The notes below the pieces were generated by a model. It saw nothing but the letters and a program-made list of their open reading frames with translations, searched no databases and was not told the origin of the DNA. A stretch of 64,000 nt of DNA from Spirochaetia bacterium (GTDB taxonomy: Bacteria > Spirochaetota > Spirochaetia > UBA9216): contig CAXXYH010000004.1 in assembly GCA_963677925.2 (NCBI GenBank), positions 1,696,001 to 1,760,000 of the forward strand, written 5' to 3'. The translations under genes and the position numbers were made by a program. How positions within the stretch are numbered: position 1 is the first letter of the stretch; the number at the start of each line of letters is the position of its first letter. This document shows positions 2,444 to 17,698 of this stretch, piece by piece.

Positions 2444-2674
2444 TTATCTATGCAGGGCTCTTTCAATCTGATCCTTGTTAAATCCGACAAGTATTCTTCC
2501 GTTTATATCGAGAACCGGAACTCCCATCTGTCCTGATTTCCTGGTCATTTCTTCTGCGCGGCGGGTGTCTGCGGCTACATTGTATTCTGTGAAGTTAATC
2601 TTATGCTGTCTGAAGTAGTCCTTTGCCAGTCTGCAGTATGTGCAAGTCGGTGTAGTATACATTGTTACTGCCAT
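2444..2674 (-). CDS. Glutaredoxin (NrdH/YruB-like)
   Basis: CTYC active site, GVP cis-Pro motif, GF end motif; GGAGG RBS upstream. Confidence 0.93.
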   Translation of the reverse strand: MAVTMYTTPTCTYCRLAKDYFRQHKINFTEYNVAADTRRAEEMTRKSGQMGVPVLDINGRILVGFNKDQIERALHR

Positions 2675-2823
2675 ATTATTATCCTCCTGTAAATTACATA
2701 TATAAAATAATTAAGCTGTTTGAAAAAGTCAATCCATATATAATAAAAATAATATATATAAAGATAAAATATATGTCCCAATGTTTAGACTCAAACGTAA
2801 ATTTCTATTATACTTTCTTTATC

Positions 2824-3744
2824 ATGAATTTTAACAAAGAAATACTGATTTTTGACGGTGCCTGCGGCACAAGCATACAGAATATGGAACTCGGTGATGA
2901 AGTCTGGGACGGCAACGAAGGATGCAACGAGTATCTTAACATAACAGTACCGGAAAAGATAACCGGGATGCATCTGGAGTTTCTGGAAGCCGGAGCTGAT
3001 ATAATAGAAACAAACACCTTCGGTGCCAACAGGATAGTACTTGCCGAGTATGGGCTTGAAGGCCGGGTAGAAGAGATAAATGCCGCTGCTGTAAAAGCGG
3101 CAAGAGCTGCAGTTGAAAAATACGGCAGCGGTATAATTGCCGGATCCATCGGACCGGGTACAAAGATGCCGACTCTGGGTCATATCACTGTGGAGGAACT
3201 TGAAGCCTCATACCGTGAGCAGGTTGCGGCGCTTATTGATGCCGGTGTGGATATGTTCATGCTTGAAACAGCACAGGATATACTTCAGCTGAAGACTCTG
3301 CTGGTCACCACCTTCGATGTGATGAGGGAAAAATTGAAAGAGCTTCCCGTCGTTGTTTCTGTTACCATAGAAAAGACCGGTACAATGCTTGCCGGAACCG
3401 ATATTGCCGCAGCTGCGGCAATCATCGAACCATTTCCTGTCTTTGCCTTCGGCCTAAACTGTGCCACGGGTCCGGAAGACATGGTTTCAAGCATTAAATG
3501 GCTCAGCCATAACTGGGGAGGCCGGATATCATGTCTGCCAAACCAGGGAATACCCGAAATAGTTGACGGGAAGACCTGCTACCCGATGAGTCCTGAACAT
3601 TATTCGGGGGAACTCGGGCATTTTGTAAAAGATCTGGGTGTCTCGGTTGTAGGCGGCTGCTGCGGGTCAACACCTGCCCATATTGCTGCGCTTAAGCAGG
3701 CTGTCGGCGGTATGAGTCCGGCAAAGAGGGAGGTGGAGGCATGA
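2824..3744 (+). CDS. metH: Methionine synthase, homocysteine-binding module (N-terminal half of a split MetH)
   Basis: DGACGT, GADIIETNTFGA, GLNC and GGCCG Zn ligands. Start taken at ATG 2824 because the ORF-track extension is AT-rich intergenic DNA. Confidence 0.92.
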   Translation: MNFNKEILIFDGACGTSIQNMELGDEVWDGNEGCNEYLNITVPEKITGMHLEFLEAGADIIETNTFGANRIVLAEYGLEGRVEEINAAAVKAARAAVEKYGSGIIAGSIGPGTKMPTLGHITVEELEASYREQVAALIDAGVDMFMLETAQDILQLKTLLVTTFDVMREKLKELPVVVSVTIEKTGTMLAGTDIAAAAAIIEPFPVFAFGLNCATGPEDMVSSIKWLSHNWGGRISCLPNQGIPEIVDGKTCYPMSPEHYSGELGHFVKDLGVSVVGGCCGSTPAHIAALKQAVGGMSPAKREVEA

Positions 3745-6188
3745 ACCCTTCCGTAGCTAGTCTGTATGAAAGTGTTGATCTCATTCAGCCGATTAAGCCG
3801 CTGATAATCGGCGAGCGCTGCAACTCAAACGGTTCCAAACGGTTCCGCGAATGTCTTCTTGCCGATGACTGGAACTCATGCCTTACAATCGCAAAGGAGC
3901 AGCAGAGTGCCGGTGCTCATGTGCTTGACCTCTGCACCGCTTATGCCGGCCGTGATGAGTTTGCCGACATGAGCATGCTTATTCCGATGTTCTCAACATC
4001 GCTGAAGACCCCGCTCATGATTGACTCAACTACGCCCGAGGTGATTGAGCATTCGCTTAAGATTTATCCCGGACGCAGCATAATAAATTCGGTAAACCTC
4101 GAAGACGGCGGGAAGAATATTCACCGCGTGCTTCCTCTTGTTAAGAAATACGGAGCTGCTGTTGTTGCTCTTACCATCGATGAGGATGGAATGGCAATGA
4201 CCGCGGAAAAAAAGCTGGAGGTCGCGAAGCGTATCCACAGCATTGCTGTTGATGAGCACGGCCTGCGTCCTCAGGATATCCTCTTTGATCCATTGACTTT
4301 TACGGTAGGTGCGGGCGACGAGAATCTAAGGGATGCGGCGGTTCAGACTCTCGATGCAATGAAGCTGATAAAGCAGCAGCTTCCCGGCTGTCTTACAGTG
4401 CTGGGCCTTAGCAATATCAGCTTCGGGCTTTCTCCGAAATCAAGGAAAATTCTTAACGCTGTATTTTTGCATGAGGCTCTTGAAGCCGGGCTTGATGCCT
4501 GCATTATCGATGCGGCAAAGATCATCCCGCTTGCCTCCATTTCCGAAGAGGACAGGGAAGTCTGCCTGGATCTTCTGTATGACAGGGTAAAAGATGAGGT
4601 CAAGTCTCCGCTTTTGACATTTATTGATCACTTCGGAAACAGAAGCGACAGCGACGACAGCGAAGATCAGACATGGAAACCTGCCGAACAGCAGCTCTAT
4701 GATCATATCGTTGACGGAAGCAGGGAGGATCTTGAAGACATTCTTGATATGCTTCTTCAGCGGCGTTCGCCGATTGGAATTATCAATGAAATCCTGATAC
4801 CCGCAATGCGGCACGTCGGAGAGCTTTTCGGAAAGGGCGAGCTTCTTCTGCCCTTTGTTCTGCAGTCGGCTGAAACTATGAAGGCTTCAGTCAGCTATCT
4901 TGAACCGCTCATGGAGAAAAAGGACGACGGAGCAGCAGTGAAGATTCTGCTTGCTACGGTTCAGGGAGATGTTCACGATATCGGTAAAAACCTGGTAGAG
5001 ATTATTCTAAGCAACAACGGCTATACCGTTTACAATATCGGGATCAAGGTTCCTGCAGAAACGATAATAGAGAAGGCTAAGGAGCTTGATGTTGATATAA
5101 TCGGACTCTCGGGCCTGCTTGTGAAATCGGCAATGGTAATGAAGGACAGCATGGAGCAGTACGCTGAGGCCGGGTTCAAGATTCCAATCTTTCTAGGCGG
5201 AGCGGCTCTCACAAGGAAATTTGTTGCAGAAAGCTGTGTTCCGGGTTATCCGGGCCCGGTTGTTTATAATTCGGACGCTTTTGACGGACTGAAGCATGTG
5301 CGGGAATTTGAAGCCGGAACCCTTGAAGCAACCACCTGGGAAGCAAATCCTGATGCAGTGTCGGTTAAACCCGGCAGAAAGGATATGACTATAGTCCGCG
5401 ACAACCCGGTTCCTGAACCTCCGTTTAAGGGCGGCAGAGTGACAGAGGATATTGACCTGGAAGAGGTTCTTACTTTGGTCAACAAGCAGGCGCTTTTCCG
5501 CGGACGCTGGGGCTACCGACGGGGCAAGATGAGCGCCTCTGAATATGATGAACTTATTAAAACCAGGGTGGAACCCCTCTATGAATCCTTCAGGAAGGAA
5601 TTTGTGGAAGGACGGCTTGTCCGTCCAGCGGCGGCCTGGGGCTGGTTTGACTGTGAGAGCAGGGACAACCTGCTGGTTCTAAAAGATTCAGGAAAGGAAT
5701 ACAGCTTTGATTTTCCAAGACAGTCGGAGGCTCCCTTTCTCTGTCTTTCGGATTACTATAAAAATGCTGAGGAAGGCGGCGATGTCGCAGGTCTCTTTGT
5801 AGTAACAATAGGACCGGAGGTCTCAAAGCGCACAGCCGAACTCTATGAGGCAAACGAATACCATGACTACCTGATGCTTCACGCCTTCAGTGTAGAGGTG
5901 ACTGATGCCCTTGCCGAATACTGGCATAAGCAGATGAGAAAGGAACTTGGAATTGCGGTCGATGAACCTGAGAATATCCACGGCTACGTTACCCAGCAGT
6001 ACCAGGGCTCAAGATACGGCTTCGGCTACCCCTCATGTCCGGACCTCAGTGCCCATGAGATAGTATTTGAACTGATAAAACCTGAAAGAATCGGTATAAG
6101 CCTGACAGAGAATTACGAGATGGTTCCGGAGCAGAGTACATCAGCTCTTGTTGCCCATCATCCGCAGGCCAAATACTTTGCTGTATAA
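3741..6188 (+). CDS. metH: Methionine synthase, pterin-binding + B12-binding + activation domains (C-terminal part of a split MetH)
   Basis: IIGERCN, GDVHDIGKN (DxHxxG cobalamin motif), SGLL, RYGFGYPSCP, PEQSTSA; ATGA overlap with the upstream half. Confidence 0.95.
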   Translation: MNPSVASLYESVDLIQPIKPLIIGERCNSNGSKRFRECLLADDWNSCLTIAKEQQSAGAHVLDLCTAYAGRDEFADMSMLIPMFSTSLKTPLMIDSTTPEVIEHSLKIYPGRSIINSVNLEDGGKNIHRVLPLVKKYGAAVVALTIDEDGMAMTAEKKLEVAKRIHSIAVDEHGLRPQDILFDPLTFTVGAGDENLRDAAVQTLDAMKLIKQQLPGCLTVLGLSNISFGLSPKSRKILNAVFLHEALEAGLDACIIDAAKIIPLASISEEDREVCLDLLYDRVKDEVKSPLLTFIDHFGNRSDSDDSEDQTWKPAEQQLYDHIVDGSREDLEDILDMLLQRRSPIGIINEILIPAMRHVGELFGKGELLLPFVLQSAETMKASVSYLEPLMEKKDDGAAVKILLATVQGDVHDIGKNLVEIILSNNGYTVYNIGIKVPAETIIEKAKELDVDIIGLSGLLVKSAMVMKDSMEQYAEAGFKIPIFLGGAALTRKFVAESCVPGYPGPVVYNSDAFDGLKHVREFEAGTLEATTWEANPDAVSVKPGRKDMTIVRDNPVPEPPFKGGRVTEDIDLEEVLTLVNKQALFRGRWGYRRGKMSASEYDELIKTRVEPLYESFRKEFVEGRLVRPAAAWGWFDCESRDNLLVLKDSGKEYSFDFPRQSEAPFLCLSDYYKNAEEGGDVAGLFVVTIGPEVSKRTAELYEANEYHDYLMLHAFSVEVTDALAEYWHKQMRKELGIAVDEPENIHGYVTQQYQGSRYGFGYPSCPDLSAHEIVFELIKPERIGISLTENYEMVPEQSTSALVAHHPQAKYFAV

Positions 6189-7747: not shown

Positions 7748-8389
7748 ATGATTTACCATACCAGAGTATTTGAGAAGCTTTCCGACGAAAAGAAGAACCG
7801 AATCCTGACCACTGCCGCAGCCGAATTTTCAGTCTGCGGATATCAGGCCGCGAATATTAATGTCATTGCAGATAAATGCGGTGTCAGCGTGGGAGCTCTT
7901 TATAAGTATTTCACAACAAAGGAAAATCTCTTTCTTACCGTATGTATGGATGCAGTCCGCCAGCTTTCTGAGAGTCTAAAAGCTGTTGAAGAGCTCGGCG
8001 GCGGAATATTTGAAAAAGTTGAAAATGTAATTCGTACCATCCTTTCACATTCCCGCAGATACAGCGAACTCATCAATCTTTATATAGAAATAACCACCGA
8101 AGGAAACAGTGAACTGGCCTCCAAGCTGTCATACCAGATGGAGTCGGTTTCAGCCGAATACTACCGCAGGCTTATCAGGCAGGCTGTCGACTCTGGAGAA
8201 TTGAAGTCCGGATGTGATGCCGGGATGGCTGCATTCTGCATGGATAACCTGTTCATGGCTCTTCAGTTTTCATACGCCTCTGAGTACTGGAAGGAGCGCA
8301 TGAAGATATATGTTGATGAGAATATCTTCGATGATGATGAGCGTGTAGTTTCCGGTATGATGAATTTCATAAAAAATGCACTTAAATAG
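7748..8389 (+). CDS. TetR/AcrR family regulator
   Basis: N-terminal HTH IADKCGVSVGALYKYFTTKENLF. Confidence 0.93.
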   Translation: MIYHTRVFEKLSDEKKNRILTTAAAEFSVCGYQAANINVIADKCGVSVGALYKYFTTKENLFLTVCMDAVRQLSESLKAVEELGGGIFEKVENVIRTILSHSRRYSELINLYIEITTEGNSELASKLSYQMESVSAEYYRRLIRQAVDSGELKSGCDAGMAAFCMDNLFMALQFSYASEYWKERMKIYVDENIFDDDERVVSGMMNFIKNALK

Positions 8390-8411
8390 CTCTGCTGCAG
8401 CATAAGAATGA

Positions 8412-8466
8412 TTGACTTTCTGAGAAGACGTGGTAAACTTAAAAAGTGAGTGACTGCTCACTTTTT
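8412..8466 (+). promoter_or_regulatory. sigma70-type promoter with adjacent palindromic operator
   Basis: TTGACT (8412)-16 bp-TAAACT (8434) with an extended -10 TG, then AAAAAGTGAG-TGACTG-CTCACTTTTT (8441-8466). Confidence 0.65.
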
Positions 8467-8488
8467 ATAAAATCTACAGGGGGACATT

Positions 8489-9949
8489 ATGTCATTCTCT
8501 ATTTCAGAATATCCTGATACCGCAGCTGTAACTGCTGATCTGCAGAGGCTTGTCAAGCTTCCGGTGCCGGCATTCACAGATGAATACTCAAAGAAGATCG
8601 ATTCCTACTTCGAAGATAAATGCTCCGGGTCTAAGGCCATGATTGAAACTGCGAAGCAGCGGATACCCGGCGGAGTTCAGCATAACCTTGCATTCAACCA
8701 TCCCTTTCCGCTGGTAATAACAAAGGCCGAAGGCGCCTACCTTTATGATACCGACGGAAATAAATACATCGATTTCCTGCAGGCCGGCGGACCGACAGTT
8801 CTCGGAAGCAATATGCCCTCAGTGCGCGAGAAGGTTATCAGCCTGCTTAATGACTGCGGCCCTTCAACCGGACTCTTTCATGAATACGAATTTCTGCTTG
8901 CCGACAAGATTGCTCAGCTTTTTCCGTCGGTGGAGATGTTTCGAATGCTTGGAAGCGGAACCGAATCATGCATGGCTGCAATACGAGTGGCCAGGCTTGC
9001 GACCGGAAAAAAGAATGTTGTGAAAATGGGCGGTGCCTATCACGGCTGGAGCGATCAGCTTGCCTACGGAATACGTCTTCCGGGCAGCATGCACTTCGAG
9101 GCCCACGGGGTACCGAGGTATATATTCAAAAATACCCAGGAATTTTATCCCAACGATCTGGGCAGCCTTGAAAGGGTACTCAAGCGCAACCAGCTGCGCG
9201 GCGGAACCGCAGCGGTGCTGATTGAACCGATGGGCCCCGAGAGCGGAACCAGACCGCTGGACCGTGATTTTAATGCGGGTGTCAGAAGACTCTGTGATAA
9301 ATACGGTGCACTTCTGGTTTTTGATGAAGTAGTTACCGCCTTCAGGATAGGAATGTCCGGAGCTCAGGGGTACTTCGGAGTAAGCCCCGATCTGACAGTC
9401 TTCGGGAAGGTAGTTGCAGGCGGTTATCCTTCGGCAGGAGGGCTTGGCGGAAAGCGCGAATACATGAAATTCCTGGCAGCCGGAATACAGACCGGACAGA
9501 AGAAGGCTCTCATTGGCGGAACAATGGCCGCCAACCCTCTGAGTTCAGCGGCAGGATATTTCACTCTCTGCGAGATGGAAGAGCAGAAGGCCTGCGAGAA
9601 GGCGGGTACTGCTGCCGACAGACTTACCAAAGGGCTGCAGAAAATAATCAGTGAACTGGCTCTTCCCTTTGTAGCCTTCAACCAGGGTGCAATATGCCAT
9701 CTTGAAACCAGTGCTGCAATGCTTCTTGATATCGACATTAAAAGATTCTGGACAATAAAAAATACTATAAAGAATGCCCATGACCGAAAAGCCTCTATGG
9801 AACTTTTCGGTGCCGCCTATACCATGGAAGGGCTTATAACCCTGGCAGGAAGCAGACTGTATACGAATGCTGAGGATACCGATGAGGTGATTGATGAAGC
9901 TCTTGAAGGTTTTAGACATGTATTTTCGAATGTAAGGAAGATGATATGA
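8489..9949 (+). CDS. Class III PLP aminotransferase, HemL/GSA-aminomutase-like but with a divergent substrate site
   Basis: SGTESCM, YHGWSD, FDEVVTAFR, FGK PLP lysine, GGTMAANPL. IPGGVQHNLAF replaces the HemL motif PGGVNSPVRAF. Confidence 0.88.
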   Translation: MSFSISEYPDTAAVTADLQRLVKLPVPAFTDEYSKKIDSYFEDKCSGSKAMIETAKQRIPGGVQHNLAFNHPFPLVITKAEGAYLYDTDGNKYIDFLQAGGPTVLGSNMPSVREKVISLLNDCGPSTGLFHEYEFLLADKIAQLFPSVEMFRMLGSGTESCMAAIRVARLATGKKNVVKMGGAYHGWSDQLAYGIRLPGSMHFEAHGVPRYIFKNTQEFYPNDLGSLERVLKRNQLRGGTAAVLIEPMGPESGTRPLDRDFNAGVRRLCDKYGALLVFDEVVTAFRIGMSGAQGYFGVSPDLTVFGKVVAGGYPSAGGLGGKREYMKFLAAGIQTGQKKALIGGTMAANPLSSAAGYFTLCEMEEQKACEKAGTAADRLTKGLQKIISELALPFVAFNQGAICHLETSAAMLLDIDIKRFWTIKNTIKNAHDRKASMELFGAAYTMEGLITLAGSRLYTNAEDTDEVIDEALEGFRHVFSNVRKMI

Positions 9950-10605
9950 CAGAAGCCGATGCCAGAATAATTCTGCGTGATGCAGGATTCCGCTTTGTGG
10001 AATCAGGCCTGACTACCGGAACCTGGGGAAATATCAGTCTGCGGTTTTCAAATGATGAGATGCTTGTTACGCCCAGCGGCGCCGATTATCTGTCGATACA
10101 GCCGGCAGACCTTACTCTTGTAAAAATATCTGATGACAGCTGGAGCGGTTCTGCTAAACCTTCCAGCGAATACAAGCTGCATTCTGCAATTTACCGTGAC
10201 CGAAGGGATATTAATGCTGTCATCCACACTCACAGTACGAATGCCAGTGTTGCCGCCGCGGCCAGACGCGAGGTTCCGCCGGTGCTTGATGATCTTGCCC
10301 AGATTATCGGACCGACAGTAAGGGTTGCCGATTATGCTTTGCCAAGTACGAAGGCAATTGTGAAAAAGACACTGAAGGCGCTTAAGGGGCGGAATGCGGC
10401 TTTGATGGCCAATCACGGTGCAGTCTGTCTGGGCCGGGATATCGATGAGGTATTTACTGCAGCGGAGGTTCTTGAGAAGGGCTGTAAAGCCTTTATTGAA
10501 GCAGAATTCCTGGGCGGGGCAAAATCAATAAATAAGTTTGAGGCCGGACTGATGCATCAGATCTACCTTAAAAAATATTCAAAAATCAGGATGAAAGAAA
10601 AATGA
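9946..10605 (+). CDS. Class II aldolase, L-fuculose-1-phosphate aldolase-like
   Basis: GNIS, TPSG, PSSE (catalytic Glu), HTHS and NHG Zn ligands. Confidence 0.88.
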   Translation: MTEADARIILRDAGFRFVESGLTTGTWGNISLRFSNDEMLVTPSGADYLSIQPADLTLVKISDDSWSGSAKPSSEYKLHSAIYRDRRDINAVIHTHSTNASVAAAARREVPPVLDDLAQIIGPTVRVADYALPSTKAIVKKTLKALKGRNAALMANHGAVCLGRDIDEVFTAAEVLEKGCKAFIEAEFLGGAKSINKFEAGLMHQIYLKKYSKIRMKEK

Positions 10606-12206
10606 AAAGCGAAACCTGCATCCTTGCTTATGATATAGGAACTACGAGTATCAAAACCTGTCTGTACCGGACCGGTGATGTGTTTGAACTGCTTGGGAGC
10701 TCGATGCAGGAATATTCCATTACAATATCTGCCGGCGGTGCTGCGGAGCAGAATCCTGAGAACTGGATAGAGGCCCTTACCGCGACCACACAGGAAGTGA
10801 TAAACGAATCAGGCATGGATCCTGCGGCTGTAACAGCTGTTTCATTTTCATCGCAGATGCAGGGTCTGGTTCTTACCGATGCTGAAGGCCTCCCGGTAAG
10901 GCCTGCGATGAGTTATATGGATCAGCGGGCCGTGAAGCAGAAGGCTGATTTCGGCCGCGGATTAAAAATCGAGGGGATCCCGGTATTTACTCTTCTTTCA
11001 AGCATTAAAATTACAGGAATTGCTCCTACAAGCGTAAAAGATCCGCTTTGGAAGTATCACTGGGTAAAGGAAAATGAGCCTGAGGTTTTTAAAAAGACTG
11101 CATACTGGTTTGACGTAAAGGATTTTATAATCTTCAGGCTTACCGGAAAGGCTGTTGCCACAAGGGATTCCGCCTGTGCAGCAGGTCTGTTTGACAACCG
11201 TCCGGGTAGAAACTGCTGGAGCAAATCCCTGTGCAGACGATACGGAGTTAATTTTGAGCATCTTCCCTCTATTATAGAATCACATGAACCGGCCGGGGTT
11301 CTGCTTCCGGAATGGGCTGAGGCTATGGGTTTGGCGCCGGGTACAATCGTATTCGGCGGCGGCGGAGATGCTTCGATGATAGGGCTTGGCGCCGGAGCGG
11401 TCAGTGAAAACTCAGCCCACATCTACATGGGAACTTCAGGCTGGGTCTCTGCCGTTACAAAGCAGCGAAGGCTTGATCTTGAGCACAAAATTGCATCCAT
11501 AACATGCGCTGTTCCCGATCGCTATCATTATTTCTGTGAGCAGGAAACCTCAGGGAAATGCCTGGAGTGGGTGAAGGATCATCTTGCACTTGATGAAATC
11601 GGAATCTACCTTAAGAAAACTTCGGTGACTGATGATCCGGAATCGATATACAGAAATCTTTTTGAATACCTCAATGAGGTAATCGGTGATACTGAACCCG
11701 GCTGTGACGGGGTCATTTTTACTCCCTGGCTTCACGGAAGCCGTTCTCCATTTGAGGATCCGAACGCCAGGGGGATCTTTTTCAATATAGGACTGAGCAG
11801 CGGAAAGAGAGACATGATAAGGGCTGTTGTTGAAGGCCTTGCCTACAGTACCAGGTGGATGCTTGAAAGCATTGAAACAAGGGTAAGATGCAATAAACGG
11901 CTGAGATTTGCAGGCGGCGGAGCTCTTTCTCCGGTAACTGCACAGATAATGGCTGATATCACCGGGCATGAAATTGAAGTTCCCGAGAATCCTCATAATG
12001 CCGGAGCTCTCGGGGCCGCCCTTACGGCAGCCTTCGGGCTTGGAATGATATCCTCCTTTGATGAAATACCCTCAAGAATTAAGCAGCAGGATGTGTATTG
12101 CCCCGATCTTAGCAATAAGCCGGTTTATGATCGCAACTATAAAGTTTTCAAAAATTTATATAAACAGAACAGGACCTTATTCTCAATGATGAACAGCTGC
12201 GGTTAA
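10602..12206 (+). CDS. FGGY family carbohydrate kinase
   Basis: YDIGTTSIK, SQMQG, DQRA, GGGD, MGTSGW, GSRSP..D..ARG, GGGA. Confidence 0.92.
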   Translation: MKSETCILAYDIGTTSIKTCLYRTGDVFELLGSSMQEYSITISAGGAAEQNPENWIEALTATTQEVINESGMDPAAVTAVSFSSQMQGLVLTDAEGLPVRPAMSYMDQRAVKQKADFGRGLKIEGIPVFTLLSSIKITGIAPTSVKDPLWKYHWVKENEPEVFKKTAYWFDVKDFIIFRLTGKAVATRDSACAAGLFDNRPGRNCWSKSLCRRYGVNFEHLPSIIESHEPAGVLLPEWAEAMGLAPGTIVFGGGGDASMIGLGAGAVSENSAHIYMGTSGWVSAVTKQRRLDLEHKIASITCAVPDRYHYFCEQETSGKCLEWVKDHLALDEIGIYLKKTSVTDDPESIYRNLFEYLNEVIGDTEPGCDGVIFTPWLHGSRSPFEDPNARGIFFNIGLSSGKRDMIRAVVEGLAYSTRWMLESIETRVRCNKRLRFAGGGALSPVTAQIMADITGHEIEVPENPHNAGALGAALTAAFGLGMISSFDEIPSRIKQQDVYCPDLSNKPVYDRNYKVFKNLYKQNRTLFSMMNSCG

Positions 12207-12225
12207 ACAGGTCCGGGAGGAAGTA

Positions 12226-13503
12226 ATGCAGGAAGATTACAAGGTATACGGTTACAGGTGGGTGGTTCTTGCCGCCTTCATGGCAGTCACTGTGGTGATA
12301 GAGATACAGTGGCTTGCGCATGCCTCGGTGGCCCGGGCTGCTGAAGCTTTCTACATAGGCCAGTTCAGTCCGGATTCGGTTGTTAATATTGATTTTCTGG
12401 CAATGTCGTATATGTTTGTTTTTTTAATTATATGTATTCCTGCTTCATATGTGATCGACACCTTCGGAATAAAAACCGGACTTGGAATAGGCTGTGTCCT
12501 TACAGCTGCATTCAGCCTGCTCAAGGGCTTCGGTGGAGGAAGTTTTAATCTGGTTATGATTGCCCAGATGGGACTGGCTGTAGCCCAGCCTTTTATTCTT
12601 AATGCCGTGACTGCCGTCACAGTCCGGTGGTTTCCTCTTGAAGAACGGGGAACAGCTGCGGGACTTGCCGCGCTTGCCCAGTATATAGGGATAGCCATAG
12701 CCATGGCTGTGACGCCGATGCTTGTTTCAGGTTCTCCTTCCGACCCCGACTACGGACAGGGAATTGATACCATGCTGATGATCTATGGTCTTATCAGCGC
12801 TGTGACTGCAGTTGCGGCATTCGTGCTTATCAAGGAAAAGCCTCCGACACAGCCTTCCGGTGAAGAGTATGTTCATACCAAATTTTCCGAAGGATTCAAA
12901 TATATCTTCGGAAGCAGGGACATGGTTCTGACCATCGTTCTGTTTTTTATCGGCCTCGGGATATTCAACGCTGTAAGTTCAATGGTTGACTCAATTTCAG
13001 GCGCACTGGGAGTGGATGACTCGGACGGCATGATCGGTGTGCTGATGATCGTCGGAGGAGTTATAGGTGCGATTTTAATTCCGATGCTTTCAGATAAGTT
13101 CCGCAAGCGGAAACTGTTTCTTGTTATATGCATGGCCGGTATGATTCCCGGGGTTGCAGGTCTTGCTTTTTCAGACATCCTGTTCAGTTCTGCTGATGCT
13201 GTCTATACAGCGGCTCTTGTTTCGGCCTTCGTCCTCGGTTTCTTTGTTATGAGTGCAGGTCCGGTCGGTTTTCAGTATGCCGCTGAAGTCAGTTACCCGG
13301 CTCCCGAATCCAGCTCACAGGGGCTTCTCCTTCTTGCAGGCCAGATCACCGGTCTTGTTTTTACAGCGCTTATGAGCCTCAGGAGCAATCAGTACCTCGG
13401 TACAATGATGAGTCTTTTCAGTCTTCTTGCAGTCGCCGCACTGATTCTGATACTTATGGTGAAGGAATCACCTATGATGGGTGTATCTGCTAAAAAAGAG
13501 TAG
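12226..13503 (+). CDS. MFS transporter resembling the FLVCR/SLC49 family
   Basis: N-terminal YKVYGYRWVVL, WFPLEERGTA, C-terminal PVGFQYAAEVSYPAPESSSQGLL; about 12 TM segments. Confidence 0.85.
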   Translation: MQEDYKVYGYRWVVLAAFMAVTVVIEIQWLAHASVARAAEAFYIGQFSPDSVVNIDFLAMSYMFVFLIICIPASYVIDTFGIKTGLGIGCVLTAAFSLLKGFGGGSFNLVMIAQMGLAVAQPFILNAVTAVTVRWFPLEERGTAAGLAALAQYIGIAIAMAVTPMLVSGSPSDPDYGQGIDTMLMIYGLISAVTAVAAFVLIKEKPPTQPSGEEYVHTKFSEGFKYIFGSRDMVLTIVLFFIGLGIFNAVSSMVDSISGALGVDDSDGMIGVLMIVGGVIGAILIPMLSDKFRKRKLFLVICMAGMIPGVAGLAFSDILFSSADAVYTAALVSAFVLGFFVMSAGPVGFQYAAEVSYPAPESSSQGLLLLAGQITGLVFTALMSLRSNQYLGTMMSLFSLLAVAALILILMVKESPMMGVSAKKE

Positions 13504-13884: not shown

Positions 13885-14103
13885 TTCTTTACCTTGATTA
13901 AAACGTTAACGTATTTATTAAGCACATCGATAATCTATCATGTGAGTATTAAGCAAAAATTAAAAAATAATTAAAAAGAATTAAATATAGTTTAAAAAAA
14001 TTAGTTTATTTGTCATTTCAATTTTGTTCCCCTATAATAATATACAGAAAGCTGATGTATTGAATGCCGTAAAAGTTTAGTTTTTAAAGTAGCGGAGTTC
14101 CGG

Positions 14104-15924
14104 ATGAAAATATTCTCAAAAATCCTGGTATCAATACTGATAATGATTCTAGGATTTTTTTCAGCCTTCGCAGTGTTATTATATTCCTATAGCTATACTG
14201 AGAAGGTTCAAAATATTAGAGAGACTTCACTTCTCTGTATTAACTACTATACCAGGATGAATGATCGTACCTTAGCTCTTCTTTCAAGTGATATTTCTCT
14301 TGAGATCATGTATTTTCAGTGGCAGCAGTCTGTCAGTGATTTTAAGGAGATTTATCAAATAATGCAGACTCATCCTTCAAGGAATCTGTTTTCAGATAAA
14401 TCTGATGACCAGCTTAATCAGATAGAAACTTTGTGGATGCTGCAGCTGGATATTTTTAAAGAGTTATACAATGATTTTTCTATAATTTTTACTTCTGATA
14501 ATTTTTTTGATTCCGAAAAAACAGGTATACTTCTTATGATCCAGGCAGATCGAAACAGAGGGTCTGATTCGGGTAAAGATTTTGCTACTCTCATCAGGAT
14601 TAGGAAGAACCTCGAATCACTTTCGCAGGTTTATTCAGAAAGAATGCTGGATGCTCTTTCCTTAAACTCTGAGAATTTAAACACTGAAATTATTATGTCC
14701 AACAATAGAAGAATGAAAATATCAATGACTATTGTTGCGTTGATTGTAGTCTTTACCATTTATATATCTGTAAAATTCAGTCAAAAGCTATGGGATTCAA
14801 TGAGGCTGAAAAATGAGGAGCTTGAACTCAAGGTTTATGAACGGACTGCCCAGCTTGAGGAATCAAACAGTGAACTTGAGACTGCTAATAATAACCTTAT
14901 CAGAACAAATACGAAACTTGAAACGGCAATGAACTCACTCAAGCAGACACAGGACCAGCTGATATTTTCCGAAAAAAAAGCAGTTCTTGGACAGCTGGCT
15001 GCAGGACTTTCTCATGAAGTTAATACACCGCTTGGAGCAATCAAATCATCTACCAGGACGCTCAGGAATCAGCTTGATGAAATTCTTAAGGCAATTAGCG
15101 GTGAAATAATTGAATGGGACTCAAAGGAGGTTGAAGCGTTTAAAGTGCTGATTCTGGGAATACAGAAGGATAAAGAAGGTATGTTTCTTTCTGCTGATCG
15201 TCATCTTAGGAATATCGTTAAAGCCGGTCTTGTTGAAAATGGAATAAATAATCCGGAGCTGTTCTCTCATTATTTTATGGAACTGAAATTTCACCCGGAA
15301 GATCTGGAGAAGTTTATAAAAATTTTAAAACTGAAGCATGGATACGGAATAGTCACAACAGCCTCAATTATATCCACCCTGTATTCGATAGGTGAAGTTA
15401 TTGAAAGCTCCGAAGAGAAGATGTCCGTTGTAATAAAATCTCTCAGAGCTCTTGCTTATACAGAATCCGAAGGAGTCCTTACAGCAGTAAATCCTGCAGA
15501 ATCAATTGATAATGTACTCAAACTCTATTTCACCAAAACTGTCGGTAATGTGGCAATTGCAAAATTCTATAATTCGGAGAAAAAGATTATCTGCTTCGAA
15601 GATCAGCTGAATCTAATCTGGATAAATCTGATCAACAACGCCCTTCAGGCGATGCGCTATTCCGGCAGACTTGAGATCAAAATAAATGAAGTTCCGGATG
15701 GTCTTTCTGTCTCATTTACAGATACCGGGCCAGGAATACCTGAAGAAATACAGTCGATGATTTTTAATTCCTTTTTTACCACCAAGAAATACGGAGAGGG
15801 GAGCGGAATAGGCCTTAATCTGGTAAAGAATATTCTGAACAGGATAGACGGTGATGTAACTTTCAGCAGTATACCCGGTAATACTGTTTTTTCAATACTA
15901 TTCAGGAGGATTGATGAAGGGTAA
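14104..15924 (+). CDS. Membrane sensor histidine kinase (NtrB-like core)
   Basis: Two TM segments flanking an extracytoplasmic domain; H-box SHEVNTPL, N-box NLINNA, DTGPG, FFTTK, GSGIGL. Confidence 0.93.
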   Translation: MKIFSKILVSILIMILGFFSAFAVLLYSYSYTEKVQNIRETSLLCINYYTRMNDRTLALLSSDISLEIMYFQWQQSVSDFKEIYQIMQTHPSRNLFSDKSDDQLNQIETLWMLQLDIFKELYNDFSIIFTSDNFFDSEKTGILLMIQADRNRGSDSGKDFATLIRIRKNLESLSQVYSERMLDALSLNSENLNTEIIMSNNRRMKISMTIVALIVVFTIYISVKFSQKLWDSMRLKNEELELKVYERTAQLEESNSELETANNNLIRTNTKLETAMNSLKQTQDQLIFSEKKAVLGQLAAGLSHEVNTPLGAIKSSTRTLRNQLDEILKAISGEIIEWDSKEVEAFKVLILGIQKDKEGMFLSADRHLRNIVKAGLVENGINNPELFSHYFMELKFHPEDLEKFIKILKLKHGYGIVTTASIISTLYSIGEVIESSEEKMSVVIKSLRALAYTESEGVLTAVNPAESIDNVLKLYFTKTVGNVAIAKFYNSEKKIICFEDQLNLIWINLINNALQAMRYSGRLEIKINEVPDGLSVSFTDTGPGIPEEIQSMIFNSFFTTKKYGEGSGIGLNLVKNILNRIDGDVTFSSIPGNTVFSILFRRIDEG

Positions 15925-16303
15925 ATATATTATATGCGTTGATGATGAAGCCATTATTCTCTATGCATTAAAGCTGGAGCTTATGAATTATTTCGGCGGA
16001 AAATTTTCATATGAAACTGCCGTAAACGGAATTGAAGCTCTGGAGATTATTGATGAAATTTACGAAGAAGGCGGTTCTGTTTTCCTCATCATTTCCGACT
16101 GGGTCATGCCCGGTATGAGCGGTGATGAATTTCTTCTGAAAGCTGATGAAAAGCATCCTGAAACACATAAAATGATAATAACCGGACAGAGAGATGATGG
16201 TGCTATATCAGCTTTGAGAGAAAAGCTCAGACTTGAGAGCGTAATAACCAAACCATGGGACTTCAGTCAGATTGCTGAGAAAATAGAAGAACTGTCCGGT
16301 TAG
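15911..16303 (+). CDS. Single-domain response regulator
   Basis: CVDDE, SDWVMPGMSG, ITG, TKPW; no output domain. Confidence 0.92.
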   Translation: MMKGKYIICVDDEAIILYALKLELMNYFGGKFSYETAVNGIEALEIIDEIYEEGGSVFLIISDWVMPGMSGDEFLLKADEKHPETHKMIITGQRDDGAISALREKLRLESVITKPWDFSQIAEKIEELSG

Positions 16304-16309
16304 GCTGAT

Positions 16310-17698
16310 ATGAAAACATCGCTTATTTTTATTCTTATTGCCGGTTTAGCCTTCTTTTCGGGATGCGGTACCAAAAAATCCTCCACAGAACAGAAAATAG
16401 AACCCTCTGTAGAATCTCTGGGTTTCAGCTGGGAATCTCAGTCCGGTGAAGTAATAGAAGTAGAATTTAATCAGCATCCCTATTCCGAAGCTGTAATAAA
16501 GCATCTCCGGAAATTTGAGAACCTTACGGGGATTAAAGTTAATTACTCTTTCACACCTGAAGAAAACTATTTTGACAGAATAAACTACATGCTCGAATCT
16601 GAATCCGGAAATCCCGATGTCTTTATGACCGGCGCGTATCAGATTTGGGACTACAGTGCGAGAAGTCTTCTTGCTGATTTTGACGATTTCCTCGAAGACA
16701 GTCGAATCACATCCGAAGATTACGACGTGCTGGATTTCTTTCCCAACATCATAGGAGCATTCAGGTGGGATACCGTCACAGGTCATCGTCCCGGAAACGG
16801 TCCGCTCTGGGCCATTCCAATGGGATTTGAGCAGTATGTTCTTGCATACAACAAAAGAATCTTTGATGAAATGGGTCTGTCTCCGCCTGCTACGATGAAG
16901 CAGCTGCTTGAGCTCTGTTATTCACTTGATGGGTTCGGAGGTCCGGGAACTTATGCTATTGCATTGCGGGGAACGGGAAACTGGGCAACCATACATCCCG
17001 GTTTTATGACTACGTATGCCAATTACGGTGCTGTGGATTTTCTGCTTAATGACGGCAGACTTGTCTCAGCCGTAGATTCGGTACAGTCAGTGGAGATGAT
17101 CAGCAAATGGATAGAAATTATCCGGGCCGGAGCTTCTCCGCAATGGCCGTCATATACCTGGTATCATGCTTCAAAAGATTTTGGTGCCGGAAAAGCTGCA
17201 ATGCTTTTTGATGCAGATATTGTCAGTTATTTTCAGAATGTTGAGGGAGCTTCCCGTGAATCTGGAAATATAGCCTGGGTAAAAGCTCCGATGCCGGAAT
17301 CGGCGCTGGGAATGAGTTCAAAGTCAAATCTATGGGTGTGGGGGCTTGCAATTAACAGCAGGTCTAAGAGTAAAAACGCTGCATGGATGTTTGTGCAATA
17401 TTTTACAGGAAGAGAATTCCAGCTTGATGCTGCTGTCAGTGCCAAATCCGTTAATCCGCCGCGTCAATCTGTTTTCTATGATCCTGCGTTCATCGAAATG
17501 ATAAGTGAAGCTGAAACTTATCTTGAAGCTTTTAATGCAACAATTGATGGTACTTCAATTCTTTTTACTCCCGAACCCTACTTTTTTGAATTTGCGACAG
17601 AATGGGCGGAGCTCCTGCGGATGCTTGCAGAAGATGAAACTCTGTCTGTAGAGGATGAACTTATAAAGTTTAAAGAGAGAATTGATCTGCTGTTCTAA
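16310..17698 (+). CDS. Sugar ABC-type solute-binding lipoprotein
   Basis: Lipobox FSGC; LAYNKRIF, FGAGKAAM, WGLAINSRSKSKNAAWMF. Confidence 0.88.
   Translation: MKTSLIFILIAGLAFFSGCGTKKSSTEQKIEPSVESLGFSWESQSGEVIEVEFNQHPYSEAVIKHLRKFENLTGIKVNYSFTPEENYFDRINYMLESESGNPDVFMTGAYQIWDYSARSLLADFDDFLEDSRITSEDYDVLDFFPNIIGAFRWDTVTGHRPGNGPLWAIPMGFEQYVLAYNKRIFDEMGLSPPATMKQLLELCYSLDGFGGPGTYAIALRGTGNWATIHPGFMTTYANYGAVDFLLNDGRLVSAVDSVQSVEMISKWIEIIRAGASPQWPSYTWYHASKDFGAGKAAMLFDADIVSYFQNVEGASRESGNIAWVKAPMPESALGMSSKSNLWVWGLAINSRSKSKNAAWMFVQYFTGREFQLDAAVSAKSVNPPRQSVFYDPAFIEMISEAETYLEAFNATIDGTSILFTPEPYFFEFATEWAELLRMLAEDETLSVEDELIKFKERIDLLF

Follow-up and report, generated by a model that had tools for sequence, protein, structure and literature searches.

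A TetR-associated aminotransferase, aldolase and kinase module proposed to degrade phytosphingosine-type sphingoid bases in Spirochaetia and other bacteria

Introduction

Which compound would a bacterium process with a sugar-type kinase, a sugar-type aldolase and, in place of a sugar isomerase, a pyridoxal 5'-phosphate (PLP)-dependent aminotransferase? The question is raised by five co-directional open reading frames (ORFs) in a 64,000-nucleotide stretch of DNA (hereafter, the window) from a Spirochaetia bacterium of the UBA9216 lineage (assembly GCA_963677925.2, contig CAXXYH010000004.1, positions 1,696,001 to 1,760,000). They encode a TetR-family repressor, a HemL-like class III PLP enzyme (AT), a FucA-like class II aldolase (ALD), an XylB-like FGGY kinase (KIN), and an FLVCR-like transporter of the major facilitator superfamily (MFS). 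A first-pass annotation of the window proposed a kinase/aldolase route entered by transamination, with the steps in the order transaminase, kinase, aldolase, and with either a polar 2-amino-2-deoxy-alditol or phytosphingosine as the substrate.

The disposal of sphingoid bases by bacteria is largely an open question, and these compounds matter in the diet, where they come from plants and fungi, on skin and mucosa, where they are antimicrobial lipids, and in signaling. Phytosphingosine is an abundant natural compound with a 2-amino-1,3,4-triol head, present in plants, fungi, and epithelia. An aldolase of the ALD type needs a 1-phospho-2-keto-3,4-diol, and a 2-amino-1,3,4-triol phosphorylated at C1 and transaminated at C2 would yield exactly such a compound. 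When oxidized at C2, D-ribo-phytosphingosine keeps a 3R,4R (D-erythro) diol, the type cut by FucA-type aldolases.

Here, we describe the conservation, genomic context, and protein characteristics of the module and compare it with known systems. We hypothesize, and consider rather probable, that this TetR-controlled module degrades or detoxifies 4-hydroxy (phytosphingosine-type) sphingoid bases, yielding dihydroxyacetone phosphate (DHAP) and a fatty aldehyde. Full-text searches, which did not extend to subscription journals and supplements, returned no paper on the gene set or on a route that would take sphingoid bases through a kinase, a transaminase, and an aldolase, and the route therefore appears to be undescribed, as the first-pass annotation had supposed.

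Results

Conservation of the gene set

Scans with AT confirmed 571 of 594 candidate stretches in the genome collection (genome_contigs) and 556 of 594 in the metagenome collection; the counts given here come from the best 80 loci of each. Cultured bacteria among the matches include saprophytic Leptospira (for instance, L. fluminis and L. yanagawae), Spirochaeta cellobiosiphila, Evansella tamaricis, Fusibacter ferrireducens, Oceanirhabdus seepicola, and Nanhaiella sioensis. The first-pass annotation had named co-conservation as a check on its proposal, and the proposal passed it: ALD is present in 69 of the 80 genome loci, and in 62 of the 80, belonging to several phyla, it follows AT on the same strand at a distance of no more than 1 kb. 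Among the genome loci, 44 have KIN, with a TetR like that of the window in 33, an MFS protein like that of the window in 18, and the complete set of AT with all four partners in 7. Among the 11 genome loci without ALD, four end 73-2,468 bases past AT (L029, L043, L023, and L022) and five are from Leptospira, where all four such genomes tested carry class II aldolase genes elsewhere; three of these other regions were examined, two of which hold tandem pairs; the remaining region has a second ORF that matched no Pfam family. Loci L042 and L065 gave no ALD match in the 8.0 and 3.8 kb, respectively, downstream of AT.

Among the 80 metagenome loci, an ALD-type match was found in 61, the window type of kinase in 35, a Bacteroidota type of kinase in 17, TetR in 26, MFS in 8, and a GtrA-like small membrane protein in 21. 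The 21 GtrA-bearing loci usually show the order TetR-KIN-ALD-GtrA-AT and mostly have no MFS match. The gene for this GtrA/DPMS-type protein separates ALD from AT, as seen in L208-L229 among other metagenome loci and in L035 (L035:5425-5889), and its product may be the membrane component that handles an amphipathic substrate in place of MFS.

The lack of a sugar isomerase, on which the first-pass annotation had built its proposal, holds beyond the window: none was found in the operon (Pfam), and none recurs among the neighbors in the loci examined. A Pfam scan of 53 more proteins (one per family, co-directional with the module) returned a heterogeneous set with no recurrent sugar-pathway enzyme. 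An FGGY and FucU pair near AT in L058 and L069 was dropped as unrelated, the FGGY protein being a rhamnulokinase (505.8 bits). A variant cluster on a Planctomycetes-like contig (L199:8757-20181) comprises genes encoding a divergent AraC regulator, AT, ALD, a distant FGGY kinase (31% identity), an alanine-racemase-fold protein, an aldehyde dehydrogenase (ALDH), a GMC oxidoreductase, and a sulfatase. L065 and L080 likewise contain sulfatases within the module, a hint that substrates may be sulfated.

Sphingolipid-related genes beside the module

Genes encoding enzymes of sphingolipid breakdown adjoin the module in separate lineages. In a spirochaete genus designated g83, one strand of locus L132 carries genes for a neutral ceramidase (PF04734, E-value 1e-158), an AraC-type regulator, KIN, ALD, AT, and MFS; L133 has the same order with one inserted gene on the opposite strand, and in each of the nine AT-positive g83 genomes ceramidase and AT share a strand and are 5-8 kb apart. 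In Leptospira (L130), genes encoding two aldolase units (ALD-A and ALD-B, described below) and a short-chain dehydrogenase/reductase (SDR) are divergent to those encoding TetR and a neutral ceramidase (PF04734, E-value 1e-147).

In Bacteroidota (L055, L068, and L173), the module is located inside a SusC/SusD/PKD locus with a glycoside hydrolase of family 5 (GH5), whose best solved match is endoglycoceramidase II (E-values 3e-43 and 6e-40), as opposed to about 1e-7 for cellulases. L055 also carries a GH1 beta-glucosidase. In L173, an ALDH gene immediately precedes AT, and the locus further encodes a divergent TetR, two GH29 fucosidases, and a GH20 hexosaminidase. For a 664-aa protein of L055, an Atlas look-up returned only a glycosidase-like lead. 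In L056, L067, and L192, the gene encoding sphingosine-1-phosphate (S1P) lyase directly follows ALD-A/ALD-B (E-value 4e-179, 600 bits to 3mad, the Symbiobacterium enzyme); among 251 sampled Bacteroidota genomes, only 4 have a comparable lyase. Other neighbors that would fit a lipid substrate include a recurrent class-3-like ALDH (L014, L036, L046, and L173), acyl-CoA synthetases (L015 and L051), recurrent SDRs, an amidase (L022), and an acyl-CoA dehydrogenase upstream in L154, the closest relative of the window.

The association is also seen at the level of whole genomes. In an even sample of 401 Spirochaetota genomes, with thresholds of E-value 1e-150 or better for AT and 1e-10 or better for PF04734, AT was found in 91 and PF04734 in 99 (both 76, AT only 15, ceramidase only 23, neither 287); ceramidase is thus present in 76 of the 91 AT-positive genomes compared with 23 of the 310 AT-negative ones. 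Because related genomes are not independent, the same count was made by genus, and among 153 Spirochaetota genera 15 had both, 7 AT only, 6 ceramidase only, and 125 neither. In a sample of 251 Bacteroidota genomes, AT was found in 3 and ceramidase in 10, all three AT-positive genomes being among the ten and one of the three being the genome on which the sample was centered. Among AT-positive Bacteroidota genomes reached through the loci, six of seven carry PF04734, and none of the 14 control genomes does.

S1P lyase was not matched (E-value 1e-10 or better) in the genome from which the window comes (G000; 5.04 Mb, 99.6% complete), nor in two ceramidase-bearing Leptospira genomes. The known lyase route is consequently not open to these bacteria, in which the route proposed here would be the sole one. 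The g83 genomes possess both the module and S1P lyase.

AT, a HemL-like enzyme with a replaced substrate motif

The closest sequence family of AT is HemL (glutamate-1-semialdehyde 2,1-aminomutase), with which it has the fold and the catalytic lysine in common, the PLP-binding K307 being kept when AT is aligned with E. coli HemL. AT falls below every NCBIfam cut-off (TIGR00713, 267.8 vs 527.3; NF000818, 287.1 vs 398). In HemL, the GGVNSPVRAF motif binds the substrate carboxylate. In the alignment AT carries IPGGVQHNLAFNxPFPL where E. coli HemL has IPGGVNSPVRAF, so that GVNSPVR, with the VNSPVR motif already noted as missing by the first-pass annotation, has given way to GVQHNLAF, and the sequence GGVQHNLAFNxPFPL is identical in all six aligned family members (that of the window and five others). 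AT further differs from HemL in being extended by about 45 residues at its N-terminus, in carrying an insertion in its C-terminal domain, and in having a genomic context unrelated to heme synthesis. Its relatives are 60-79% identical across phyla, which makes this an unusually conserved family, and the structure 6hbs is among its PDB matches as a distant one (E-value 9e-22). We propose that AT is a transaminase that would convert the 2-amine of a sphingoid base, or of its 1-phosphate, to a 2-ketone.

Two HemL-like paralogues were tested in G000, and neither reaches the hemL cut-off. One of them, of 435 aa (G000:C4:1380008-1381051; L083:1486-2793), passed the model of GntE, the guanitoxin transaminase (535.8, cut-off 525), and scored 376.7 against the hemL model (cut-off 527.3). 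A Bacteroidota AT orthologue (G499:C1:155079-156518) contains one in-frame TAA and may be a pseudogene or reflect a sequencing error.

ALD, a FucA-like aldolase occurring in three architectures

ALD, although only 25% identical to E. coli FucA, aligns with it in PSSE (Glu75), HTH (His94 and His96), and NHG (His157), in agreement with the intact PSSE/HxH/H residues reported by the first-pass annotation. In FucA, the glutamate of PSSE is catalytic and the three histidines bind the metal. ALD remains below the FucA cut-offs (TIGR01086, 83.1 vs 400.25; NF005302, 144.1 vs 264), and its sub-threshold NCBIfam matches include epimerases, dehydratases, and decarboxylases. The role we propose for ALD is a retro-aldol cleavage between C3 and C4, which would release DHAP and a fatty aldehyde.

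The aldolase occurs in three architectures, namely a single chain of about 219 aa (in the window, g83, and Bacteroidota), a tandem gene pair, and a fusion of about 400 aa (tandem or fused examples are L003:9448-10796, L005:9486-10789, and L056:9446-10566; L058:9634-10836 is fused). Unit A keeps the metal/Glu site and lacks the loop LDDMAQIIGP and the C-terminal tail ending in YLKKYSK, and unit B has lost most metal ligands and keeps this loop and tail. The active sites of class II aldolases are located at subunit interfaces, and for this reason the two units suggest a hetero-oligomer with divided labor.

KIN and the transporter

KIN is closest to XylB and below its cut-off (TIGR01312, 313.3 vs 380.25), which is also missed by all six module-linked kinases from other lineages. 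A KIN orthologue with 49-51% identity is encoded elsewhere in all five Acutalibacteraceae genomes tested, in which the AT locus lacks KIN. We propose that KIN would phosphorylate the C1 hydroxyl of a long-chain base. The only PDB matches of MFS are FLVCR1 and FLVCR2 (E-values 9e-35 to 3e-33, residues 6-401), the PDB titles of which describe choline/ethanolamine transporters, and MFS is proposed to be an amino alcohol importer. Both family assignments made in the first-pass annotation, FGGY (by FGGY_N and FGGY_C) and FLVCR-like MFS, were thus recovered.

Proposed pathway

From the composition and context of the module we infer its substrate, step order, products, and direction as follows. Sphingoid bases would be released from ceramides and glycosphingolipids, and the amino alcohol would be taken up by the FLVCR-like MFS protein. 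KIN would phosphorylate the C1 hydroxyl, and AT would then turn the C2 amine into a ketone, giving a long-chain analogue of a ketose 1-phosphate. ALD would cut this product between C3 and C4 into DHAP and an aldehyde with three carbons fewer than the base (for a C18 base, pentadecanal), and the aldehyde would be oxidized elsewhere and enter beta-oxidation. TetR would sit on a GTGAG..CTCAC palindrome over the promoter until released by the base or its phosphate.

KIN is placed first, followed by AT and ALD, because the S1P lyase encoded next to the module needs base-1-phosphates and these clusters hold no other kinase. The transamination-entered kinase/aldolase route of the first-pass annotation thus gains support from the co-conservation and the sphingolipid-gene context, but the lyase adjacency suggests an order of steps that differs from its own, in which the transaminase comes ahead of the kinase. 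The near-universal adjacency of AT and ALD fits a direct hand-over of the reactive keto-phosphate to the aldolase. If the scheme is true, DHAP would retain all three head carbons, the nitrogen would end up in an amino acid, and the tail would be released in the form of a fatty aldehyde.

Observations that weigh against the proposal, and alternative explanations

Several observations count against a sphingoid-base substrate. A sphingolipid-specific neighbor was found in only 6 of the 160 AT loci from both collection scans, and no ceramidase was detected by tblastn in any of the 80 genome loci or in the 80 metagenome loci; the tblastn matches were confined to loci picked around ceramidase matches, i.e., L130, L132, L133, and the weak copy of G000 (L131/L134). 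This G000 ceramidase-like protein is weak, short (421 aa, 55.6 bits), and encoded far from the operon. Among AT-positive Firmicutes, PF04734 exceeded the cut-off in one of five genomes, weakly, and it was found in none of the AT-positive genomes of Actinomycetes, Sphaerochaeta, and Thermodesulfobacteriota (one each). S1P lyase is already able to degrade phytosphingosine-1-phosphate, and where it co-occurs with the module the AT/ALD branch therefore looks partly redundant. To our knowledge, no FGGY kinase acts on a lipid, and the solved relatives of MFS carry small polar amino alcohols. Tyr113 of FucA, which is supplied by the neighboring subunit, is replaced by Asp/Leu in ALD (VLDDLAQ vs IHYMIA in FucA; no Tyr), and ALD of g83 scores 133.1 bits with a 4-epimerase subfamily model compared with 124.9 bits with FucA models. 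Finally, many Clostridia have AT and a fused ALD amid housekeeping genes, with no TetR, kinase, or transporter gene nearby.

Some of these points would suit a small polar substrate, an amino-polyol or amino sugar derivative such as a 2-amino-2-deoxy-alditol or 2-amino-butanetriol, which would be converted to DHAP and a short hydroxy-aldehyde and leave only an indirect link to sphingolipids. Both FGGY kinases and class II aldolases are typical of sugar metabolism, MFS has solved homologues only among transporters of choline and ethanolamine, and the module repeatedly has GH1 enzymes (3 loci), GPH-type transporters (7 loci), sulfatases, and further glycosidases in its vicinity. We nevertheless regard this explanation as unlikely. 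The ceramidase, the endoglycoceramidase-like GH5, and the S1P lyase encoded next to the module in separate lineages are all enzymes for the lipid portion of sphingolipids, an ALDH of the fatty-aldehyde type and an acyl-CoA synthetase are further neighbors, and the regulators are of the TetR type and not of a sugar type. In addition, the module is frequent in Leptospira, for which sugars are no growth substrate, and we know of no abundant natural polar 2-amino-1,3,4-triol. Of the two substrates put forward in the first-pass annotation, phytosphingosine is hence favored by the ceramidase, GH5, and S1P lyase neighbors and by the co-occurrence of AT with ceramidase, whereas the polar 2-amino-2-deoxy-alditol has become less likely.

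A sphingoid-base module might also operate with no retro-aldol step, if ALD were an AraD-like epimerase/isomerase or an MtnB-like dehydratase whose substrate was the 2-keto-1-phosphate formed from sphinganine or sphingosine. Some members of the class II aldolase family are epimerases, dehydratases, or decarboxylases, and all three kinds are represented among the sub-threshold matches of ALD; both the replacement of Tyr113 and the best score of the g83 protein point the same way; moreover, most animal sphingoid bases lack the 4-hydroxyl required for aldol cleavage. Against this stand the PSSE glutamate and the three histidines, arranged as in FucA, and the absence from the loci of any recurrent enolase-phosphatase, thiolase, or similar follow-up enzyme. 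Where S1P lyase is adjacent, it could take the non-hydroxylated bases and leave the 4-hydroxy bases to AT and ALD. On balance, we find such a role of ALD rather improbable.

The reverse direction deserves consideration at least for Clostridia that possess only AT and fused ALD. ALD would condense DHAP with an aldehyde and AT would aminate the product to an amino-triol phosphate, a building block for a lipid or the cell surface; with a fatty aldehyde, clostridial AT and aldolase would make 4-hydroxy sphingoid base phosphates without serine palmitoyltransferase. The Acutalibacteraceae loci hold only AT and fused ALD, among SMC, RNase III, and TrmFO-like genes, with no TetR, KIN, or MFS, while in other loci a histidine phosphatase follows ALD (L053, L061, L060, and L190), a CDP-alcohol phosphatidyltransferase lies between AT and ALD (L027), and GtrA-like proteins are frequent neighbors. 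Even so, both the general biosynthetic reading and its sphingoid-base form in Clostridia appear very doubtful: the KIN orthologue is still present in all five such genomes, an ATP-dependent kinase fits catabolism or salvage and not synthesis from DHAP, and elsewhere the module accompanies degradative enzymes under a repressor. Those Clostridia are not known to make sphingolipids.

Also very doubtful is an assimilation of ethanolamine or phosphoethanolamine, the head-group product of S1P lyase and of the turnover of phospholipids, in which KIN would form phosphoethanolamine, AT glycolaldehyde phosphate, and ALD a pentulose phosphate by condensation with a triose. In its favor, FLVCR-type transporters carry ethanolamine according to their PDB titles, S1P lyase, which releases phosphoethanolamine, is adjacent in three loci, and AraD chemistry involves glycolaldehyde phosphate. 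On the other side, no lyase was matched in G000 or in either Leptospira genome tested, the kinases of ethanolamine come from a different family, and no FGGY substrate smaller than glycerol is known. Catabolic routes rarely contain a condensation step, and the ceramidase and endoglycoceramidase of clusters without the lyase would be left unexplained.

Operon layout, control region, and neighboring genes

The five ORFs form one unit (Table 1), and the TetR gene with its tightly coupled four-gene operon, as well as the two ATGA overlaps described by the first-pass annotation, could be read directly from the sequence (AT/ALD at 9946-9949 and ALD/KIN at 10602-10605). All that the first-pass annotation had observed and that was tested proved correct. 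The ATG of MFS starts 19 nt past the KIN stop and is preceded by a GGGAGG ribosome-binding site. The nearest public relative of the window is a Spirochaetia metagenome-assembled genome with 98% AT identity.

Table 1. Features of the module and of its surroundings in the window.
Feature	Position	Strand	Evidence or remark
TetR-family repressor	7748-8389	+	TetR_N 47.1 bits (Pfam)
Sigma-70-like promoter TTGACT-16-TAAACT with TG extension	8412-8439	+	Consensus scan; between TetR and AT
Inverted repeat AAAAAGTGAG-TGACTG-CTCACTTTTT, candidate TetR operator at transcription start	8441-8466	none	Directly after promoter-like site
AT, HemL-like class III PLP enzyme, 486 aa	8489-9949	+	Aminotran_3 169 bits (Pfam)
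ALD, FucA-like class II aldolase, 219 aa, single-chain form	9946-10605	+	Aldolase_II 165.5 bits
KIN, XylB-like FGGY kinase, 534 aa	10602-12206	+	FGGY_N 136.1 and FGGY_C 101.4 bits
FLVCR-like MFS transporter, 425 aa	12226-13503	+	MFS_1 97.2 bits
360-aa ORF	2662-3744		Overlaps the next ORF by 4 nt
815-aa ORF, partial MetH match	3741-6188		Positions 326-1182 of the MetH model only
Second MFS protein, 430 aa	6397-7689	-	Divergent from TetR, 58 bp apart
Histidine kinase, stand-alone receiver protein, sugar-type ABC solute-binding protein	14104-17698		Directly downstream of the operon

A perfect palindrome with a GTGAG..CTCAC core is located no more than 260 nt upstream of AT in 21 of the 33 TetR-bearing genome loci, the 21 coming from Spirochaetia, Leptospira, and Firmicutes; examples are TGAGTGAATATTCACTCA in Firmicutes and TTGACAaTGAGTGA-N4-TCACTCAtTGTCAA in Leptospira. 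The other 12 TetR-bearing loci show no GTGAG..CTCAC repeat within 260 nt upstream of AT, and several of them have another gene of the unit ahead of AT. The inverted repeat of the window is a candidate operator of TetR, which is the likely sensor of the substrate or its phosphate. Sigma-70-like sites are no more numerous in the region than in shuffled sequence, and the sole argument for the promoter call is its position adjoining the operator.

The second MFS gene forms with TetR a classic repressor/efflux-pump arrangement, which is kept only in the 98%-identical relative (L001), and no GTGAG palindrome was found in the short intergenic region between the two genes; this MFS protein is probably not part of the conserved module. 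Further upstream (2662-6188), the 815-aa ORF lacks the homocysteine-binding domain of MetH, which the overlapping 360-aa ORF may carry; the two would then form a split methionine synthase. The genes directly downstream of the operon, where the GC content is lower (0.365 at 14001-16000), appear unrelated to the module. Elsewhere in G000, the ceramidase-like protein, of which only the N-terminal part of PF04734 is matched, is encoded in an operon (G000:C3, L134:7767-13280, minus strand) together with an Abhydrolase_10 protein, an MFS protein, and a type-B carboxylesterase; the operon adjoins genes encoding Opp permeases and a divergent LysR, and its carboxylesterase and amidase-like genes recall fumonisin-type detoxification.

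Discussion

With moderate confidence, we describe the scheme as a ketose-1-phosphate aldolase pathway entered by transamination, with a lipid base as its substrate. With more than 550 confirmed matches per collection, in Spirochaetota, Bacteroidota, Firmicutes, and other phyla, the module could help to explain the turnover of sphingolipids in guts, sediments, and reactors. If the proposal is true, it would also provide a lipid substrate for an FGGY "sugar" kinase, a new HemL-like transaminase clade, and a FucA-like aldolase accepting long-chain aldehydes, with a possible use in making chiral amino-triols.

The systems to which the module bears a resemblance differ from it in characteristic ways. 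With the catabolism of L-fucose and L-rhamnose (E. coli FucI-FucK-FucA), it shares an FGGY kinase and a metal-dependent class II aldolase with the same glutamate and three histidines, and the expected cut of a 1-phospho-2-keto-3,4-diol into DHAP and an aldehyde. In contrast to that pathway, the module has no isomerase, and its PLP transaminase would make the 2-keto group; its kinase is XylB-like and not FucK-like, its regulator is TetR, and its substrate would be a lipid amino-triol and not a deoxy-sugar.

The pathway of sphingoid-base kinase and S1P lyase, present in eukaryotes and some bacteria (structures 3mad, 4q6r, and 5k1r), likewise comprises phosphorylation at C1, a PLP-dependent step, cleavage of a carbon-carbon bond, and formation of a fatty aldehyde. 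However, the known sphingoid-base kinase is diacylglycerol-kinase-like and does not belong to the FGGY family, and a single lyase there corresponds to the transaminase and aldolase proposed here. The proposed cut would lie between C3 and C4 and not between C2 and C3, would give DHAP instead of phosphoethanolamine and an aldehyde one carbon shorter, and would need a 4-hydroxyl.

Fumonisin degradation in sphingomonads, which relies on a carboxylesterase and an aminotransferase, differs from the module in that no kinase or aldolase follows the transamination and in that AT belongs to a distinct HemL-like clade. Hydrolyzed fumonisin has no C1 hydroxyl. The likeness lies in the deamination itself: a class III aminotransferase turns the C2 amine of hydrolyzed fumonisin, a sphinganine analogue, into a 2-ketone (PMC8954241), and the matching structure, 6hbs, is the distant match of AT mentioned above.

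The last comparison concerns the SphR regulon of Pseudomonas aeruginosa (cerN ceramidase, sphA, and sphBCD). According to a 2025 paper on sphBC, this regulon, a bacterial response to sphingoid bases, combines a ceramidase and an AraC-type regulator with genes metabolizing sphingosine, sphinganine, and phytosphingosine; SphB and SphC are a periplasmic cytochrome and an oxidoreductase, and their product is given there as unknown (PMC11893366). The g83 cluster likewise pairs a ceramidase with an AraC-type regulator, whereas the enzymes of the module are a kinase, a transaminase, and an aldolase in place of the cytochrome and oxidoreductase of P. aeruginosa.

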